64,000 bases of DNA from contig NC_043013.1 in the NCBI RefSeq assembly GCF_006345805.1, positions 17,112,001-17,176,000 on the forward strand, in the 5' to 3' direction. The stretch comes from Octopus sinensis. Lineage: Eukaryota. Below, piece after piece: positions 36,641-63,607 of this stretch. The position numbers and the translations under genes are program-made. Under the pieces are notes generated by a model. The model made no database searches and had not been told where the DNA came from. It was given only the letters and a program-made list of their open reading frames with translations. The number at the start of each line of letters is the position of its first letter. Position 1 is the first letter of the stretch.

Positions 36641-37050
36641 ATGTTTGTGTGTCAGTGATACATAGTGATACACACACATAGAGATACACATACAGACACA
36701 GACATACATACATACAGACATATATACATACACAAACATACATACACAAACATACATACACACACATACATTCTACACAAACGTACATACATACACACAC
36801 GTACATACATACACATGCATACATACAGACATGCACATACATACATGCACATACACATACATACATGCACATGCATACTCATACATACAATCATATACAT
36901 ACATACATACTGACATATACAAACATGCACGTACATACATGCACATACATACACATACATACAGACAGACATGCACATATATACAGACATGCACAAAACA
37001 AACATTCACAAACATACATACACATACATGCACATACCTACATGCACATT
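35110..37050. repeat. Degenerate (CA/TA)n microsatellite fields with a SINE B 5' half at 36425-36650
   Basis: cata/caca/tgca mosaics; ggcaccttgggcaagtg...gacggaaactgaaagaagcc at 36474-36560. Confidence 0.9.
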
Positions 37051-38885
37051 TTTTAAATATTGTTTTTTAATAATTTTTTTTACTATTTGTTTTTAATATT
37101 CTTTTTTTAATATTTTATGTAATATTTTTTATATATTTTTGTAATATTTTTTTGTAATATATTTTTGTCATGTTTTTTTGTACTATTTTTTTGTAATATT
37201 TTTTTTAAATATTTTTTTGTAATAATTTTTTTAATATTATATTTTAATATTTGTTTTAATATTTTTAAAAAATATTTTGAAATATTTTTGAAGTAATTTT
37301 TTAAAATATTTCTTAAAATACTATTTTGTATTAATTTTCTTATAAATAATTTCTTTCCATTAATTTTTTTTTATTAATTTTTTAAATCAATTTTTTTAAA
37401 TCAATTTTTTAGAATTAAATTTTTTTTAATTAACATTTTTTAGTTAATTTTTTTAAATTAATTTTTTAATTAATATTTTTAAATAACATTTTTTTGGTAA
37501 TTAATTTTTTAACTTAATTTTTTTAATAACACTTTTTTTAATTATTTTTTTTTCAATAATTTTTTTTCCATAATTTTTTAAACTAATTTTATTTAATTAT
37601 TTTTTTAATTAATTTTTTTAATCAATTTTTTTGAATTAATTTTTTTAAATAATTTTTTTTCAAACATTTTTTTAGTTAATTTTTTTTAATTGATTTTTTG
37701 TTGTAATTGATTTTTTTGATTACTTTTTTAAAAATTAATTTTTATGTTCATTTTGTTTTATTAATTTTTTTTCATTAATTATTTTTAAATAATTTTTTTT
37801 TAATTAATATTTTTTTATTATTTTTCTTTTAATTTTTTTCAATTAATATTTTTTGATTAATTTTTTTCAAATAATTTTTTTTAAATAATTCTTTTTTTAA
37901 ATAATATTTTTTTAATTAATTTTTTTTTAAATTATTTTTTTAGAATTAAACTTTTTCGATTAATCTTTTTTAATTATTTTTTTAATCAACTTTTTTTAAT
38001 TAATATATTTTAATTAAACTTTTTTATTAATAAATTTTTTTTTCGTTAATTTTTTTTAAATAATTAATTTTAATTAATTTCTTTTTAAAACTATTTTAAC
38101 TATTTTAACTATTTATTCTATTTAACTATTTTATTTATTTATTTATAGCTTCTATTTATAGCTTCTATTTATAGCTTCTATTTATTTATTTTTTTTATTT
38201 TTTTTATAGATTCTATTTATAGAATCTGTAAATAGAATCTATAGTTAAATTTTTTTTAATAAATTTTTAAAAATCTTTTTTTAATAATTTTAAAATAATT
38301 CTTTTAATTAATTATTTTTTATTAATTTTTTTTAATTAACATATTTTTAATTAATTTTTGTTGGTAATTAACTTTTTAAATTATTTTTTTAATTATTTTT
38401 TTAAATTAATTTTTTAATTATTTGTTTTTTAAATAATCTTTTTTTCAATATTTTTTTTTGAATTAATTTTTTAAAAAACTTTTTATTATTTTATTTTATT
38501 AATTTTTTAAAAATAATCCTTTTTAATTAATTTTTTTTATTATTTTTTAAATTCATATTTTTTAATTAATTTTTTTTTGTTAATTAATTTTTTTTAATTA
38601 ATTTTTTTTTCAATTAATTTTTTTAATAAATTTATTTATAGATTCTATTTATAGATTCTATTTATAGATTCTATTTTAATAAATTTATTTATAGATTCTA
38701 TTTATAGCTTCTATTTATAGATTCTATTTATAGATTCTATTTATAGATAATATTTATAGATTCTGTTTATAGATTCTATTTATAGATTCTATTTATAGAT
38801 TCTATTTATTTATTTATTTATTCATTTATTTATTTATAGATTCTATTTATAGATTCTGTTTATAGATTCTATTTATAGATTCTAT

Positions 38886-38916
<31 letters not shown>

Positions 38917-39005
38917 CTTATTTATTTATAGATTCTAATTTATAGATTCTAATTTATAGATTCTATTTATAGATTCTATTTATAGATTCTATTTACAGAT
39001 ACTAT

Positions 39006-39036
<31 letters not shown>

Positions 39037-39099
39037 TAGATTCTAATTTATAGATTCTATTTATAGATTCTATTTATAGATTCTATTTATAGATTCTTT

Positions 39100-39134
<35 letters not shown>

Positions 39135-39306
39135 TAGATTCTATTTAGAGATTCTATTTAGAGATTCTATGTATTTATTTATTTATTTATAGCTTCTATT
39201 TATTTATTTATTTATTTTATTTTTTTTTTTATAGATTCTAGTTATAGATTCTATTTATAGATTCTATTTATAGATTCTATTTATAGATTCTATTAATAGA
39301 TTCTAT

Positions 39307-39337
<31 letters not shown>

Positions 39338-39780
39338 TATATTCTATTTATAGAATCTATCAATAGAATCTATAAATAGAATCTATAAATAAATAAATAA
39401 ATAAATAAATAAATAGAATCTATAAATAGAATCTATAAATAAATAAATAAATAAATAAATAGAATCTATAAATAGAATCTATAGATAGAATCTATAAATA
39501 GAATCTATATTTTTAATTATTTTTTAAATTCATATTTTTTAGTTAATTTTTTTTAATTAATTTTTTTTTCAATAATTTTTTTTAATAAATTTATTTATAG
39601 ATTCTATTTATAGATTGTATTTATAGATTCTATTTATAGATGCTATTTATAGATTCTATTTATAGATTCTATTTTAATAAATTTATTTATAGATTCTATT
39701 TATAGATTCTATTTATTTATTTATTTATTTATAGATTCTATTTATAGATTCTGTTTATAGATTCTATTTATAGATTCTAT

Positions 39781-39811
<31 letters not shown>

Positions 39812-39941
39812 TAGATTCTATTTATAGATTCTATTTATAGATTCTATTTATAGATACTATTTATTTATTTATTTATTTATAGATTCTATTTATAGATTCT
39901 ATTTATAGATTCTATTTATATATTCTATTTATAGATTCTTT

Positions 39942-39988
<47 letters not shown>

Positions 39989-40528
39989 TAGATTCTATAT
40001 ATAGATTCTATTTAGAGATTCTATTTATAGATTCTATGTATTTATTTATTTATTTATAGCTTCTATTTATAGCTTCTATTTATAGCTTCTATTTATAGCT
40101 TCTATTTATTTATTTATTTATTTATTTTTTTATAGATTCTATTTATAGAATCTGTAAATAGAATCTATAAATAGAATCTCTAAATAGAATCTATAAATAG
40201 AATCTATAAATAAATAAATAAATAAATAAATAGAATCTATAAATAGAATCTATAAATAGAATCTATAAATAGAATCTATAAATACAATCTATAAATAGAA
40301 TCTATAAATAGAATCTATAAAAAGAAGTTATAAATAGAAGCTATAAATAGAATCTATAAATAGAATCTATAAATATAATATGCTTTTTTTCATTAATTTT
40401 TTTTTAATAAATTTGTTTAAATTAATTTTTTGTTAGAATCTATAAATAGTAGCTATAAATTTATTTATTTATTTATTTATAGCTTCTATTTATAGATTCT
40501 ATTTATAGATTCTATTTATAGATTCTAT

Positions 40529-40563
<35 letters not shown>

Positions 40564-42490
40564 TAGATTCTATTTATAGAATCTATAAATAGAATCTATA
40601 AATAGAATCTATAAATAGAATCTATAAATAGAATCTATAAATAGAATCTATAAATAGAATCTATAAATACAATCTAAAAATAGAATCTATAAATACAATC
40701 TATAAATAGAATCTATAAATAGAATCTATAAATAGTATCTATAAATAAATAAATAAATAAATAGATAAATAAATAGAATCTATAAATAGAAGCTATAAAT
40801 AGAAGCTATAAATAGAAGCTATAAATAAATAAATAAATACATAGAATCTCTAAATAGAATCTATAAATAGAATCTATAAATAGAATCTATAAATAGAATC
40901 TATAAATAGATAAATAAATAAATAAAAAGAATCTATAAATAGAATCTATAAATAGAATCTATAAATAGTATCTATAAATAAATAAATAAATAGATAAATA
41001 AATAGAATCTATAAATAGAAGCTATAAATAGAAGCTATAAATAAATAAATAAATACATAGAATCTCTATATAGAATCTATAAATAGAATCTATAAATAGA
41101 ATCTATAAATAGAATCTATAAATAAATAAATAAATAAATAAATAAAAAGAATCTATAAATAGAATCTATAACTAGAATCTATAAATAGAATCTATAAATA
41201 GAATCTATAAATAGAATCTATAAATAGAATCTATAAATAAATAAATAAATATATAAATAGTATCTATGAATAGAATCTATAAATAGAATCTATAAATAGA
41301 ATCTATAAATAGAATCTATAAATAGTATCTATAAATAGAATCTATAAATAGAATCTATAAATATAATCTATAAATAAATAAATAAATAAATAAATAGAAA
41401 AATAAATAGAATCTATAAATAGAATCTATAAATAGAATCTATAAATAGCATCTATAAATAGAATCTATAAATAGAATCTATAAATAAATTTATTAAAATA
41501 GAATCTATAAATAGAATCTATAAATAGAATCTATAAATAGATTCTATAAATAGCATCTATAAATAGAATCTATAAATGGAATCTATAAATAAATTTATCA
41601 AAATAGAATCTATAAATAGAATCTATAAATAGAATCTATAAATAGAATCTATAAATAGAATCTATAAATAGCATCTATAAATAGAATCTATAAATAGAAT
41701 CTATAAAAAAATTATTGAAAAAAAAATTAATTAAAAAAAATTAATTAACAAAAAAAATTAATTAAAAAATATGAATTTAAAAAATAATAAAAAAAATTAA
41801 TTAAAAAGGATTATTTTTAAAAAATTAATAAAATAAAATAATAAAAAAGTTTTTTAAAAAATTAATTAAAAAAAAATTATTGAAAAAAAGATTATTTAAA
41901 AAACAAATAATTAAAAAATTAATTTAAAAAATAATAAAAAAATTAATAAAAAAAAATTAATTAAAAGAATTATTTTAAAATTATTAAAAAAAGATTTTAA
42001 AAAATTAATTTTTAAAAAAATAAATAAAAATAATTAAAAAGAAAATTAATTGAAAAAAAATTATGAAAAAGAATAATTAAAAAAAATTATGAAAAAAAAT
42101 TATTAAAAAAAATTAATTACGAAAGAAAAATATTAATAAAAAAAAAAAATTAATTAACAAAAAATTATTTAAAAAAATTAATTAAAAAAATTATTTAACC
42201 AAAAATTAATTAAAACAAATTTATTAAAAAAAAATTTATGAAAAAAAAATTAATTAAAAAATATGAATTTAAAAATAATTAATTAAAAATGATTTTTTTA
42301 AAAAAATTAATAAAATAAAATAATAAAAAAGTTTTTTTTTAAATTAATTCAAAAAAAATTATTGAAAAAAAAGATTAATTAAAAAACAAATAATTAAAAA
42401 ATTAATTTTAAAAAATAATTAAAAAAATAATTAAAAAATTAATTACCAAAAAAAATTAATTAAAATATATTAATGAAAAAAAATTAATGA
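37050..42490. repeat. 5.4-kb AT-only foldback array: T-rich left arm, 13-bp (TTTATAGATTCTA)n core in both orientations, A-rich right arm
   Basis: About 38270-38625 is largely the reverse complement of about 41705-42000. Core units switch orientation several times. Confidence 0.9.
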
Positions 42491-42618
42491 AAAGGAAAGT
42501 GAGAATAGAGAGGCAAGTTTTGTCTAGCGAATGTTTCAAAAAAGATGGGTGAATGTAGTAAGGATGGCACGTATGAATGACGAAGCCACCTTGAGCATAA
42601 TCCTATGAACCCAGAAAA

Positions 42619-46806: not shown

Positions 46807-47361
46807 CAGAATTACAACTATTTAGCGGTTTGAGTTTGGCTGCTCTTTCTAGTGGGTCGAATGGCCTATCAGGGCCATTCCTTAATATTGTTGAAATTAT
46901 ATATATATAGTTGGTGACTATTTTTCTTTCTCACTTTAGACCGCTGGTGGCGAAAAATTTTTCTTGAATTTTTTGCTACCCTTATATTGATTAATTAATG
47001 ATTTTTTGGCTAATTTTGAAATTATATCAGCAGTTTATATTTGCTGCTGAGAAGATGGCGCGGTGACGGTGGATTTTGAAAATTTAGAGTATATAGACTC
47101 GAGGCGTCGCTGCTTTCGCCTCGTGGATATATATTTTCCTTGGCTTCTTTGCTGACGAGACAGGCTAGATGTAAACAAATTTAATTTAATTTAATTAAAT
47201 TGGTTTACCAAAGTGTCGAAACTATGCATAGTCCAAAGATGATAAGAGTAAATGTTTTTATTTCTCCTTTGGTTTCAGAATTACAACTATTTAGCGGTTT
47301 GAGTTTGGCTGCTCTTTCTAGTGGGTCGAATGGCAATCAGGGCCATTCCTTAATATTGTTG
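46807..47361 (+). mobile_element. Retrozyme-like element, ~1.2 monomers (469-bp period)
   Basis: ~87-bp direct repeat (46807-46893 and 47276-47361), no meaningful ORF, internal hammerhead, ends in (TA)n. Confidence 0.8.
47146..47239 (+). ncRNA. Type I hammerhead ribozyme, intact core, predicted cleavage after GUC at 47233
   Basis: Stem I tctttg/caaaga; CTGACGA (47152-47158); stem II gaca/tgtc with an extra hairpin gtaaac-a-aatttaatt/aattaaatt-g-gtttac; GAAA (47218-47221); palindromic stem III actatgcatagt; then C. Confidence 0.9.
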
Positions 47362-47379
47362 TGTATATATATATATATA

Positions 47380-47582
47380 AATGTGACCGCGTGTGTACCG
47401 TTGGCGATTTTTTTTTCCTCTGTCTTCCCTTCTCTGGATCTTTCCTTCTCCTATGTTTCAGACGAAGAGCTCTGCTCGAAACGTTAAACCCTCCTTCTTT
47501 CCTTCTTTCCTGAGTGTCCAATAATACTATATTTGTTCCACATCCTCGTGTTGTTGTGTTTTTTGTGCTTTCTTGTTTGGAT

Positions 47583-49189: not shown

Positions 49190-49610
49190 CCTAGCAAACA
49201 CTGATTCTATTGTTATTAAAATGGTGGATAAAGGAGGCGCTATTGTAATTAGAGTTAAGGGTAAGAACATTTCAGTTTGTGAAGAAGTTTTAAGTGACAA
49301 AACTTAAAAGAATTACTTGTAGATCCAAACCCCAATAACAGAGAGGAACTTGATAAAATAATTTTGGAAATGGAGGAAAAAAATTTCATAAATGACATGG
49401 TATCTAAGCTAATTCATTCAGAAAGAACACCTGTATTTTACAGTGTTCCAAAAATACATAAAAAATTTGAAAAATGTCTTCTATTGCACTCAATTTGCAG
49501 TGAGTATGAATGCTGCACTGCTAAAATTTCAGAATGGCTGGATGGTTTTCAGCTCCCAATAGCTAAAAGATTAAGTTCCTACATTCTGGATACTTTTGAT
49601 TTTGTTTTGA
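49190..49610 (+). pseudogene. Penelope-like element reverse transcriptase relic
   Basis: IVIKMVDKGGAIVI and FYSVPKIHK...ISEWLD...LSSYILDTFDF, matching the PLE DKG and PKIHK motifs. Confidence 0.8.
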
Positions 49611-49694
49611 TCTACACCATACTGTATGTATTGCTTTGGTATACACCATACTATACCTTAGAGTATCCCACAACCTATTCCTAGTGGTTCAGTT

Positions 49695-53207: not shown

Positions 53208-53244
<37 letters not shown>

Positions 53245-53248
<4 letters not shown>

Positions 53249-53694
53249 ACAATCAAGGAACGGCCATAATAGGCCATTCACCCACTAGAAATAACAGCCA
53301 AAGCTTCAACCGCAAATAAAAATCAATTCCGTAAACAGGAGAAAAAAGTTCCGACTTGGGCTATTTCTTACTGAAGAATCTGAGGGCCTATGGAAGATTG
53401 GCTTGATTTAATTTAATCAGGTTAGTTTACCATTAAACAGCAGATGAAACGGTGCATCGTATAAGAAATTACAGGGTAAATGTTTTTAAAATTTTCTCCT
53501 GTTTACGGAATTGATTTTTATTTGCGGTTGAAGCTTTGGCTGTTATTTCTAGTGGGTGAATGGCCTATTATGGCCGTTCCTTGATTGTTGATGTTGAACT
53601 TAAAAATGGTCTATGACTATTTAATTTTTTCCCACTAGGCCGCTGGTGGCAAAAAAAAAAATTCTACAAAATTTTTTTTGCCACCCTATATTGA

Positions 53695-53700
<6 letters not shown>
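53245..53700 (+). mobile_element. Second retrozyme-like element, with an inverted terminal segment, inserted in (TA)n
   Basis: Perfect 101-bp inverted repeat (53245-53345 / 53492-53592). Homologous to 46807-47361 (tttggctg.t.tttctagtgggt, ccgctggtggc, tatattgattaatta). Confidence 0.8.
53363..53469 (+). ncRNA. Type I hammerhead ribozyme, intact core, predicted cleavage after GUA at 53461
   Basis: Stem I atttctta/taagaaat; CTGAAGA (53371-53377); stem II atctg/cagat enclosing a G.U-rich hairpin (53391-53432); GAAA (53446-53449); stem III acgg-tgca-tcgt; then A. Confidence 0.88.
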
Positions 53701-53780
<80 letters not shown>

Positions 53781-54286
53781 AGTGTTCGTTAAAGATTTCC
53801 CCTGACCCACTTTTGGTTATTACAGGAAATGGAACTTGTACAAGTACAATCGTACTTATCTCTACATGTCACATTGTAAATCGCAACTTTCCACTAATAA
53901 CTGTTTGTCTTTTACAGCAACTGAAGTGGACTAAGGTGTTATATTGGAGGCGCTTGAATGCCGATCAGTGTAAAGGATGCGTAAGGTATTTGAGAATATA
54001 CCTTTTGGGGGTCATTGCTGCATTCTTTGCTAACTCTATGTAATCTTTGTTTCAGAAAACAATAATGGCAGACCCCGCCCTTTCCCCAGCTTACTCAAGA
54101 AATGAAGCAGCATGTTGTTCTTGTGGTTATAAAGGCTGAGCATAGTGATTTAGAAATATTTTGATTTTTAAAAGTTGCCTCTAGGAGCTAATCAATGGCA
54201 GCATTCGTCCTATTTTTCTGGACTGCCATGTTAGCTTGGTGATAACTGTTAATATCCAGTACTGCTGCAGAGAGAATTAGAAATAA

Positions 54287-54409: not shown

Positions 54410-54800
54410 ACAGCACCGCTTGACTGGCATCCATGCTAGTGGAGTGCTAAGAGCACCATCCAAGCGTGATCATTGCCAGGGCCACTGATTGACTGACTCC
54501 CATGCTGGTGGCATGTCAAAAGCACTATTCAAGCGTGATCGTTACCAATGTTGCCTTACTGGCACTTGAAAGACAACATACAAGCGAGGTCGTTGCCAGT
54601 GCCGTTGGACTGGTTCCTGTGCTGGTGGCATGTAAAAGCACCCACTACACTCTTGGAATGGTTGGCATTAGGAAGGGCATCCAGCTGTAGAAACTCTGCC
54701 AGATCAGATTGGAGCCTGGTGCAGCCATCTGGCTTGCCAGTCCTCAGTCAAAACGTCCAACCCATGCCAGCATGGAAAGCAGACGTTAAACGATGAGGAT
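54410..54800 (+). mobile_element. RTE 3'-UTR fragment (family C)
   Basis: gtaaaagcacccactacact...ggaagggcatccagctgtag...gacgttaaacgatga. Confidence 0.85.
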
Positions 54801-54834
54801 GAGGAGGAGGTTGATGATGATATATATATATCTA

Positions 54835-55130
54835 TCCTATCACATCAACAACTCCTTCACATGCACTTCTACCAATATCATCTACAGCATCTCCTGCTCT
54901 CTCTGCCATTCTCTATACATCGGGCAAACGGGACGCCACTTGGCTGACCAGTTCACGGAACACCTCCAAGACATCCAACTCAGCAATGACACCCCAGTCT
55001 CACACCATTTCCACTCTACTGGTCACTCTTTGCAACACCTGTCCATGTTCGGATTGTCCTTGCACAGGGGCCATCTGAACTCCCATTTGCAACGTGAACA
55101 GAGATTAATCTTCTCTCTTCTCTTCATTCC
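54835..55130 (+). pseudogene. Penelope-like GIY-YIG endonuclease relic
   Basis: SFTCTSTNIIYSISCSLC.SLYIGQTGR.L...F.EH...PVSHHF...H...REQ.LIF. Confidence 0.85.
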
Positions 55131-56046
55131 TACCCACCTTCTCCTTCCTTCATCGTGACCCCTCCTTTGTAAGCCTACCCTACCCCTACACATTCCAACC
55201 CAACCTTCCCTATCCTTCCCCATCCCACCCCAACCACCCCTTACACCCACTCCCACGTGCTCCACCTTTACCCCTACCCTCCGCCTACCCACACCCCACC
55301 TCTACCCCCACCCTCAGCCTAACACAGCCCACCCTTGCTTTCCCTACTCCTGCCTCCCCCACATCTTACACCATCACACCACTACAGCTTATACCACCAT
55401 ACCACACACCACACCACCATGCACACCTCAGCACTGACCACTTCCCAGACCCACATTTTCACACCTACACATACACACATGTACACGTCAAAATCACCAG
55501 CCCTCTTCCACACGCAATTACTCTCTTATACACACACACGCGCACCTTTGTTTTGGGATCACCACCACTTGTTTTGGGATCCCCACCACTTTGTTAAATC
55601 CCCTTCTCCCTAGCTCTCCTGTGTGACCCTTCTGTCCGGCCTTCACCATGATAGATCGCTAGCCACTACATATTCTTTATTTTCTCTCCTTGTTCCTTTC
55701 TGTGGAAGAGTGTATGCTCAAAATATTAAAGTCTTTTTCGCTTCCCGAGTGTTTTACTAATATATGTTTGTTGTCTACATCATCTGTCTTTGTCTTTTGC
55801 CTTTTTGAGAATTCTCCCCCTATATATATATATATATATATGCATGTATTTATATACATGCATATGTATACATATATATATATATACACATATATATTTA
55901 CTGTTAAGATACATATATTTATATATTTATTGTTTGATTATAATATCTCCATTTATTTTATGTTATTTTTTGACCTGAAGAGTGGCTATATTAGTTTTGG
56001 TGAAGCATTGTAAGGTCTAACTTTAAAATGTGAGAAGGTACAAAGT

Positions 56047-62413: not shown

Positions 62414-62926
62414 CTAATATCGCTTTCTTTTTAGAATGTCAGGTCGCCAGTTAATGGGGTGAGTTTCTTCCGATGCCTTCTCATCTTCTTTGTAAATCTT
62501 TATACTTTTGTCAGCTTCCCCAGTAATCAACCGACTTCCGCTATGATCAAAGGTGCAGGCAAAGATACCAGCTTCTGAATCAATAGAGCCTGGCTGTACA
62601 GCAGCTTGGATCCTCTGGAAGTTATAGCCTGTCTTCCAATCCCAGAAATACATTGTGCCGTTATCAGCACCAGACACCAGAACATTGTCAGAGTTCATGC
62701 CAAGAGTGTTGATGATGGCATTGTGTCCGGTCAAGTTCTGGATGAAGTTGCCATCTGGAAACTTCCACTGCTTGATGTTGTCAGGGGAACCTGATGTGAA
62801 GGAATACTTGGTTGGATGAAGGACTAATGATCGAATGCTTTTCTTGTGATTGGTAAGTGTAGCACGGGTACGTCCAGCTGCCAGGTCCCAAAGACGAATT
62901 GTACAATCATGACTACCAGTAATTAC
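62414..62926 (-). CDS. PLRG1: Pleiotropic regulator 1 (Prp46, WD40 spliceosomal Prp19-complex subunit), last coding exon
   Basis: Pyrimidine tract and acceptor ttttctttctgtttatctccgcag|GTA. The 513-nt frame encodes [30 protein letters not shown]...[10 protein letters not shown]...GYNFQR...[12 protein letters not shown]...[18 protein letters not shown]-stop, which I recognise as the PLRG1 C-terminus. No upstream exon was seen in the remaining ~1 kb. Confidence 0.96.
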
Positions 62927-63607
62927 CTGCGGAGATAAACAGAAAGAAAAATAAATGTAAAAAAATACAACAGAAATACTTTATAAGACTGCCATATTTC
63001 AGACTGTCAGCTTCTTTTTTAGAGTTGGTCAATTTTCAAAAAATATTTACATATCTAATTTAAACATGTTTTAATTTATTTGGACTCTGTACATCAAATG
63101 TTTTATTACCAATTAGCAACCGCTTCTTTAGAGATGAGCATTTTCTTAAATATTCATATTTACAACATATTTTAGTTAATTTTACTTCTGAACATCCGGT
63201 GTCTTGTTTTTGAATGTGTATAGAGAACAGGACTGAATTCCTTTAAGTACACACAATCAAATATTGAACTGACTAAAGTTGTAGAGTAAATGTAAATATT
63301 AGAAAAGAGAAAGAAAATTTGACATGAGAGACAAGCAATTGAGTGAGCCCACATGTACTCACTGGAACTGCTTCACATAGCTGCTAAATATCTCTCAAAT
63401 CATATTGTAGGCAGTTTAAAACAGAAGGCATGAGATAATGTAGTTCTAGAAATAGTGTGTCTGAATAAATGAGACATAACTACAGTTTAATGCATCACCA
63501 CTCTCTAGTCTGACTTTTGTTTTCTTATAATTTTCTGAAAAAATGTGTATTTTTAAAGGAAATTTTGCAGATAGGTCATCGAAGGTATAAATTATAATCA
63601 TCTTTTA

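Follow-up and report, generated by a model that had tools for sequence, protein, structure and literature searches.

The repeat copy at about 53 kb of the window (the window being the whole 64,000-nt stretch of Octopus sinensis contig NC_043013.1 that was analysed), hereafter the 53k copy, is read as a 5'-truncated, two-armed copy of a ~490-nt non-coding hammerhead repeat that lies in TA microsatellites. There is little doubt about its identity as a retrozyme, or non-autonomous Penelope-like (PLE) element, and the whole cycle, with mobilisation by a PLE reverse transcriptase (RT)-endonuclease, is considered quite probable. The copy belongs to the already described class of non-LTR retrozymes and has a tandem unit of ~490 nt, points that the sequence-only reading missed. 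Ribozyme and Penelope-like layout are already known as a class, and what is added is a ribozyme variant and an insertion footprint of unusual clarity, in which a sharp rule can be read from thousands of young copies, with one arm for each of two sites and both arms apparently from one source. The family also provides a template that is short and non-coding and has a conserved fold surrounding both end sites, and a natural compensatory loop change predicts dimeric cleavage; the end rule, the template and the loop change can all be tested in the published in vitro PLE system. PMC8557442 and PMC11167929 treat the origin of tandem and inverted PLE insertions as an unsettled question; if the present reading is true, one-of-each ends, common variants and arm lengths together form the genomic footprint of twin PLE insertion, and the insertion anatomy would tie retrozymes to the PLE machinery in an invertebrate.

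The window copies and their repeat family

As listed in Table 1, the 53k copy consists of two arms; it carries a single ribozyme and, given this lone ribozyme, is likely a dead-end product. The sequence-only reading had described a mismatch-free inverted repeat, and the repeat indeed spans exactly 101 bp with zero mismatches (53245-53345 and 53492-53592). Its suggestion of a recent insertion holds on other grounds, namely that the best full-length matches in the genome are 97-99% identical, while the perfect 101-bp match alone says little about age, because the arms of an insertion show a mean difference of 0.70% and about half would therefore be perfect over 101 bp. The likeness to Penelope insertions was borne out by head-to-head 5'-truncated arms, tandem units, a (TA)n target and a one-sided tail.

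Table 1. Features of the 53k copy and of the subfamily-A copy, in window coordinates.
Feature	Position	Strand	Remark
Left (TA)n target tract	53212-53245	.	
Inverted arm	53245-53345	-	5'-truncated, monomer positions 31-132, without ribozyme; 3' end is end site 1
Head-to-head junction	53346-53347	.	2 extra bases (AA)
Direct arm	53348-53702	+	5'-truncated; subfamily-B unit of ~492 nt; starts at monomer position 379, runs past the ribozyme and into the next unit up to position 238; ends at site 2
Type I hammerhead, predicted	53363-53469	+	
Hammerhead stem I	53363-53370/53462-53469	+	
Hammerhead core	53371-53377	+	CTGAAGA
Hammerhead stem II	53378-53382/53441-53445	+	with long AT-rich hairpin extension
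Hammerhead GAA	53446-53448	+	predicted cut after A53461
Helix III	53449-53460	+	12-nt self-complementary ACGG-TGCA-TCGT
Conserved multibranch domain	53524-53643	+	closing helices GCGGT/GCCGC and CTAGTGGG/CCCACTAG
Hairpin 1	53558-53579	+	GAATGGCC/GGCCGTTC; within multibranch domain
Small hairpin	53607-53619	+	TGGTC/GACTA; within multibranch domain
End site 1	53580-53592	+	putative reverse-transcription start, 13 nt past hairpin 1
One-sided tail	53593-53702	+	~106 nt; holds hairpin 2 and end site 2
Hairpin 2	53645-53685	+	GGTGGC.../...GCCACC
End site 2	53699-53702	+	putative second start, ~15 nt past hairpin 2
Right (TA)n target tract	53700-53775	.	
Subfamily-A copy (47k copy)	46807-47361	+	one-armed, ~1.2 units (unit length 467 nt); end at site 1, followed by TA tract
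Hammerhead of the subfamily-A copy	47146-47239	+	core at 47152, predicted cut after 47233

A scan of both strands of the 64-kb window for the core plus three paired stems returned two hammerheads, both on the + strand, at core 53371 (stems of 8/5/4 bp) and core 47152 (6/4/4 bp), and a covariance model run over the window found no hammerhead beyond these 53k and 47k copies. The stems had been said to differ between the two copies and still to pair, and this holds for stem I (ATTTCTTA/TAAGAAAT in the 53k copy vs TCTTTG/CAAAGA in the 47k copy), stem II (ATCTG/CAGAT vs GACA/TGTC) and stem III (ACGG/TCGT vs ACTA/TAGT), with the core and the TGCA centre of stem III present in both hammerheads in the window scan. 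Conservation had also been claimed for the downstream hairpins; both are present in the 53k copy and conserved in 12 aligned copies, but the second hairpin of the 47k copy sits in its upstream partial unit. In Rfam, no hammerhead family matched 53250-53700 even at E<=10 (8 matches for the element alone), a silence that we infer to come from the long helix II; for the whole window, the matches listed (150 of 251) are miRNA/snoRNA matches on AT repeats, all under the gathering score.

Other features of the window are as follows. The last coding exon of PLRG1/Prp46 (62414-62980, - strand; E = 1.8e-109 to Pleiotropic regulator 1) lies ~9 kb from the 53k copy, and positions 37000-42500 hold a satellite block with a GC content of about 10-12%, 13-15-nt units and long internal inverted repeats. 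Contigs of runs X1 and X10 contain the 49-nt piece 53922-53970, flanked on both sides by identical foreign sequence, like a spliced exon; these flanks are absent from the window, and the stretch itself is repetitive. Just 3' of the ribozyme, GGGTAAATG followed by a T-rich run (53474-53480, + strand) is kept in all three subfamilies, and we take GGGTAAATG to resemble a 5' splice site. It has been reported that PLEs carry an intron overlapping the ribozyme (PMC4209133).

In the 2.7-Gb genome, the direct arm (subfamily B) has matches of 97-99% identity among 40 scored of 1,169 first-look candidates, and the 47k copy (subfamily A) has matches of 88-97% among 40 scored of 2,317; the tandem period is ~492 nt in subfamily B and ~467 nt in subfamily A. 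The pattern CTGANGA-N40-70-GAAAC-NN-TGCA-NN-GTH gives 4,921 genome matches vs 3 for the reversed control, and a TAYA-loop pattern adds 423 reverse-strand matches vs 52 for the control, the reverse-strand figure being used since the forward count was partly doubled. From 73 distinct cut-to-cut monomers (467-500 nt, GC 34-38%), three subfamilies A, B and C were obtained with a pairwise identity of 65-76% and homology across the entire unit, and subfamily B2 is a sister of B, 90-94% identical to it. The genome holds at least three subfamilies, ~70% alike, with thousands of units in (TA)n tracts; the distant ones were sampled by pattern alone, from the first matches on contig C1.

Consecutive units each carry a type I hammerhead (73 monomers; one array has 12 units), the longest ATG frame in a subfamily-B trimer is 66 aa, and no tRNA was found in the subfamily B or A unit. 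Hammerheads in consecutive units, no coding capacity and a GC of 0.34-0.38 are the sequence features of a non-LTR retrozyme, and partial tandems, an inverted 5'-truncated copy and a one-sided tail are the layout of a non-autonomous PLE. Contigs of the unit occur in four runs presumed to be RNA, none recorded as RNA, and expression cannot be gauged from contig depth; the control stretch 53785-54275 is repetitive in the presumed DNA run X15, and a unit-unit junction is no test of a circle because tandem DNA gives an identical junction.

Other hammerhead repeats were met in the same genome. A decayed older repeat of ~330 nt (L113-L122, e.g., L116:1190-1930) has a hammerhead of canonical size whose helix III is the TGCA-centred palindrome ACACTGCAGTGT, and 36 matches to short-helix-II TGCA hammerheads were rejected as family members, being mostly this separate repeat. 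Further hammerhead repeat families (L186:5897-7013, L205, L192, L206, L214 and L180:6916 on the - strand) have a long helix II and the palindromic helices III ACAATTGT, ACGTACGT, ACACGTGT, ACATATGT and ACCTGCGCAGGT, and some are two-armed in TA tracts; the genome seems to hold many retrozyme families. Family E (L244-L274; L178:6960-7501 on the - strand) is a distantly related, retrozyme-like repeat of ~501 nt with 1,761 candidates and two fixed ends of its own; with a single exception, the motifs listed have the core CCGAAGA (U4C), and helix III of the family is ACCAA-T-TTGGT. U4C is mentioned once in the searched text of PMC3088659.

Ribozyme fold, covariation and helix III

The hammerhead of the family has the CUGANGA...GAAA...UH core, three helices and an open helix I of the type I hammerhead. 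The 104 distinct hammerheads fall into 24 clusters at 90%, and alignment A3 comprises 19 of these clusters plus two B2 copies, giving 21 sequences, with L128 and L047 excluded as deletion variants. With L111, L130 and L137 also left out for unpaired stems and flanks unlike the family by eye, an exclusion that favours pairing, 95.6% of 273 cells pair and double changes occur at 10 of 13 pairs. The covariation score of A3 is 0.70 vs 0.27 shuffled and at most 0.20 slid; among columns variable on both sides, 10 of 11 structural pairs pass a filter of pairing plus double change vs 67 of 2,450 others. On a tree of the downstream flank with 20 sequences (L081 was left off because its downstream flank is not homologous), 21 same-branch double changes were counted vs a null of 6.1 +/- 1.8, with a maximum of 13 in 1000 draws. 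Selection on RNA structure across subfamilies, as proposed from the two window copies, is supported by this covariation on 21 sequences, which passed the tree-aware control.

Core invariance in A3 is circular, since many sequences were found by the core pattern. In the BLAST-collected units of subfamily A, the core varies at 5/319 (1.6%) vs 141/2494 (5.7%) elsewhere (p = 7e-4), and in the young subfamily B the figures are 0.24% vs 0.79%, which is not significant (p = 0.085). Pair 10.1-11.1, next to the core, is A-U and not G-C in the 53k copy and is unpaired in 7 of the 21 sequences. The monomer folds with z = -5.2 vs 60 shuffles, and the hammerhead fold lies above the minimum-energy fold by 1.5 kcal/mol (53k copy) and 2.2 kcal/mol (47k copy). 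Downstream of the ribozyme, the multibranch domain and hairpin 2 are common to all 12 copies compared, with a double change in 10 of 37 pairs; G-U pairs there far outnumber A-C pairs, so the structure is carried by the + strand. The ribozyme is probably active in vivo in some copies.

Helix III is self-complementary at 12 of 12 positions in all 24 cluster representatives, the search having fixed 8 of the 12 letters for the pattern-found ones. In subfamily B2, helix III reads ACGG-TATA-CCGT, with both central loop bases changed and the palindrome kept; these bases cannot pair inside a tetraloop, so that their pairing partner must lie in another molecule or another unit. Among the first 100 matches of the TAYA search, which covers the TATA and TACA loops, 91 are family members representing 63 distinct copies by hand count, all with TATA and none with TACA. 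The change from TGCA to TATA is one evolutionary event, and both substitutions are transitions. The hairpin energy is -0.1 kcal/mol in B and +0.4 kcal/mol in A, and a duplex between two copies has -17.5 and -15.9 kcal/mol, respectively. The loop change suggests dimeric (double) hammerhead cleavage, and the use of dimers appears somewhat favoured. It has been reported that double hammerheads are known for short-helix-III motifs (PMC4209133, PMC7229834), and 8 of 9 predicted Xenopus retrozyme dimers gave no cleavage in vitro (10.64898/2026.07.22.740005). A GCGC loop is found in another family, at L206.

Two ends, two arms and candidate partner enzymes

The arms end at two fixed places, site 1 (53592) and site 2 (~53700), and (TA)n follows in nearly all cases. 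A total of 65 distinct head-to-head insertions was collected from subfamilies A, B, B2 and C; all 54 classified by script (42 and 12 further) have one site-1 end and one site-2 end, and four more (L037, L057, L105 and L211) are one-of-each by eye. Two ends of one type were not found among these 54 script-classified and 4 eye-classified insertions, and 7 of the 65 are without both ends classified (L003/L293, L011/L294, L026, L029/L288, L044, L045 and L047). Loci found by BLAST had to contain site 2 in some unit; the 28 core-pattern loci are free of that bias and behave in the same way. The 5' ends of the arms are random, lying at unrelated monomer positions in 22 junctions, of which 12 overlap by 0-5 nt and one by 13 nt, the other 9 having extra or unmapped bases. 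Arm lengths run from 68 to 4,001 nt, single-armed copies are common, and a target-site duplication is unreadable within (TA)n.

These lengths bear on the possibility of a DNA-level element, either a Tc1/mariner-type MITE or a Helitron-derived satellite, with an accidental hammerhead. The window copy alone, with its 101-bp inverted ends between TA tracts, would suit such an element, and Helitron derivatives also have tandem arrays with 3' hairpins. The idea is nevertheless largely refuted and highly improbable because arms of such varied length are randomly 5'-truncated, the two end sequences differ and are not the mirror termini of a MITE, single-armed copies are common, and the catalytic core and stems are under selection.

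Divergence is 0.70% across arms, 0.73% within arms and 3.73% between insertions, and a private variant is fixed in both arms of 10 of 40 insertions; given this divergence and the shared variants, the sequences indicate one source for both arms, and gene conversion after insertion could be an alternative cause of their likeness. The arm ends are read as priming sites on account of the internal RT start sites reported in PMC11167929, and the simplest reading of the end counts is that one RNA offers both sites, one per nick. Two primings on one RNA, one for each target strand, are put at about even odds. L1-type twin priming was rejected, as the direct arm does not start where the start site of the inverted arm lies.

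The inverted arm might instead arise by fold-back self-priming of one cDNA (or from an antisense template), as has been proposed for rotifer Penelope, the second end then being a stop or resolution point. Fold-back accounts for identical variants in both arms, head-to-head palindromes are so interpreted in PMC3846280, and several junctions overlap by 1-5 nt, one of them within the stem of hairpin 2. Fold-back requires one arm to fit inside the other, which is compatible with the arm lengths in 31 of 41 insertions, but in the other 10 neither arm is a sub-segment of the other (25-nt slack), at odds with this route. It is also opposed by the unrelated monomer positions of the arm 5' ends in the 22 junctions and by the in vitro behaviour of the two PLE sites, both of which act as starts (PMC11167929); moreover, neither arm can be called primary, the site-1 arm being the longer one in 21 of 41. 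Fold-back is accordingly judged unlikely, and two reverse transcriptions from one RNA is the preferred reading.

The template can be approached through arrays with at least 3 full units (n=23). In 13 of them the units differ by singletons only, as a circular monomer template would give; in the other 10, a variant recurs in a subset of the units, a pattern expected from a multimeric template or from conversion at a later stage, and monomer circles are therefore not the sole template. The hammerhead might even be a passenger, or act in monomers only, with uncut multimeric read-through RNA as the template and arrays growing at the DNA level. PLE insertion in vitro needed no cleavage (PMC11167929), Naiad and most Chlamys PLEs are described in PMC8557442 as without canonical hammerheads, heterogeneous units are repeated across arms in some arrays (e.g., L293 and L294), and a 4-bp helix III permits a monomeric fold. 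We regard this reading as improbable, though less so than fold-back, because stem covariation and core retention extend over subfamilies ~70% alike, the palindrome survives a double loop change, and the private variants that are fixed throughout the units of both arms (10/40) need a one-unit bottleneck, which a circle supplies.

In the preferred cycle, tandem arrays would be transcribed and the multimer would be cut into units by the hammerheads, best as dimers through the predicted 12-bp helix III between neighbouring units, and some units would be circularised as in other members of the class. A Neptune-like Penelope protein would nick both strands of a (TA)n tract, and one source RNA would undergo two reverse transcriptions, at site 1 and site 2, 106 nt apart in the conserved fold. 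Both cDNAs would stop at random points and then be joined head to head, the resulting structure being the one observed. The most specific version, a twin reaction at two start sites of one folded RNA, one per nicked strand, with the 490-nt retrozyme as minimal template and an inter-unit helix III that cuts multimers and spares monomers, is put forward tentatively, at slightly below an even chance.

Autonomous elements with RT and GIY-YIG domains and an identical target reside in the same genome as the retrozyme. Young elements with an RT, a CxxxxCxxC linker and a GIY-YIG domain (781-aa ORF) lie in TA tracts and are labelled Neptune-like after the linker described in PMC8557442; their copies (L186:1846-4188 on the + strand and L178:5503-6939 on the - strand), 96-99% identical, have a 479-aa upstream ORF before the 781-aa RT/GIY-YIG ORF. 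The Neptune-like PLE has two 3' end sites ~40 nt apart in TA tracts, that is, an optional tail of ~40 nt, and no canonical hammerhead was found in its 3' region. A second, larger PLE family has 13,987 candidates. Monomers A and B showed only AT-rich noise in DNA comparison with 50 loci including GIY-YIG matches (the best-scoring of 5,029), and of monomers A, B, C and E compared with 36 loci of the second family (the best-scoring of 13,987), only the window's own copy matched. At L178, a full-length Neptune-like copy is joined by its 5' end, with nothing in between, to a family-E copy that stops at its site 2; this fusion could reflect template jumping or chance adjacency, and another apparent case was rejected because the two elements simply lay near each other. 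The window itself holds a GIY-YIG fragment of the 13,987-candidate family (54790-55158, + strand), an RT fragment that by eye is similar to the Neptune-like ORF (49298-49684, + strand) and, just past the 47k copy at about 47400-47560 (+ strand), a PLE-like 3' end with a minimal-hammerhead-like motif, seen by eye.

Comparison with known retrozymes and Penelope-like elements

In a literature search mostly without subscription journals and without Repbase/Dfam, no description was found of the octopus ~490-nt family, and none of strict one-of-each ends or of a compensatory change in loop III. Like the non-LTR retrozymes described by Cervera & de la Pena 2020 (PMC7229834) and in 10.64898/2026.07.22.740005, the octopus repeat is a tandem repeat of low GC content (34-38%) that is non-coding and has one type I hammerhead per unit, thousands of copies from monomers to multimers, a strongly self-paired unit and co-existing autonomous PLEs. 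Its unit of 467-500 nt is longer than the 150-450 nt given in PMC7229834 and falls inside the 51-972 range of 10.64898/2026.07.22.740005. Unlike the non-LTR retrozymes as described there, its helix II has a hairpin extension of ~50 nt, and its insertions are often two-armed and lie in (TA)n, whereas the words 'inverted' and 'microsatellite' are absent from the searched text of PMC7229834. Li, Clavereau & Pollet 2026 (10.64898/2026.07.22.740005) derived retrozymes from PLEs on the basis of co-occurrence and pLTR similarity, mainly in vertebrates; the octopus retrozyme is known from its sequence and has no pLTR match to an autonomous PLE in the loci compared.

With Neptune/Poseidon PLEs (PMC8557442, PMC3846280, PMC11167929), the octopus family shares partial tandems, an inverted 5'-truncated copy at the 5' end, a (TA)n preference, a tail at one end only, a hammerhead upstream of the end sites and two fixed 3' ends; it differs in having no ORF and a tail of ~106 nt vs 30-40 nt there. 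It has been reported that two internal RT start sites delimit the PLE tail, that both strands are cut and extended and that the protein is a predicted dimer; the same in vitro work reports no start-site difference between strands and insertion without the need for ribozyme cleavage (PMC11167929). PMC3846280 and PMC8557442 already describe a tail carried optionally by one of two inverted pLTRs, whereas here the tail stands on exactly one arm in 54/54 classified two-armed insertions. The dimeric (double) hammerheads of newt/axolotl satellite repeats and the minimal hammerheads of PLEs (PMC4209133, PMC7229834) also have a palindromic loop III through which two tandem ribozymes form a long helix III; they have a helix III of 0-2 bp, while in the octopus family 4 bp plus the palindromic tetraloop make a 12-bp duplex, with a compensatory change within the loop.
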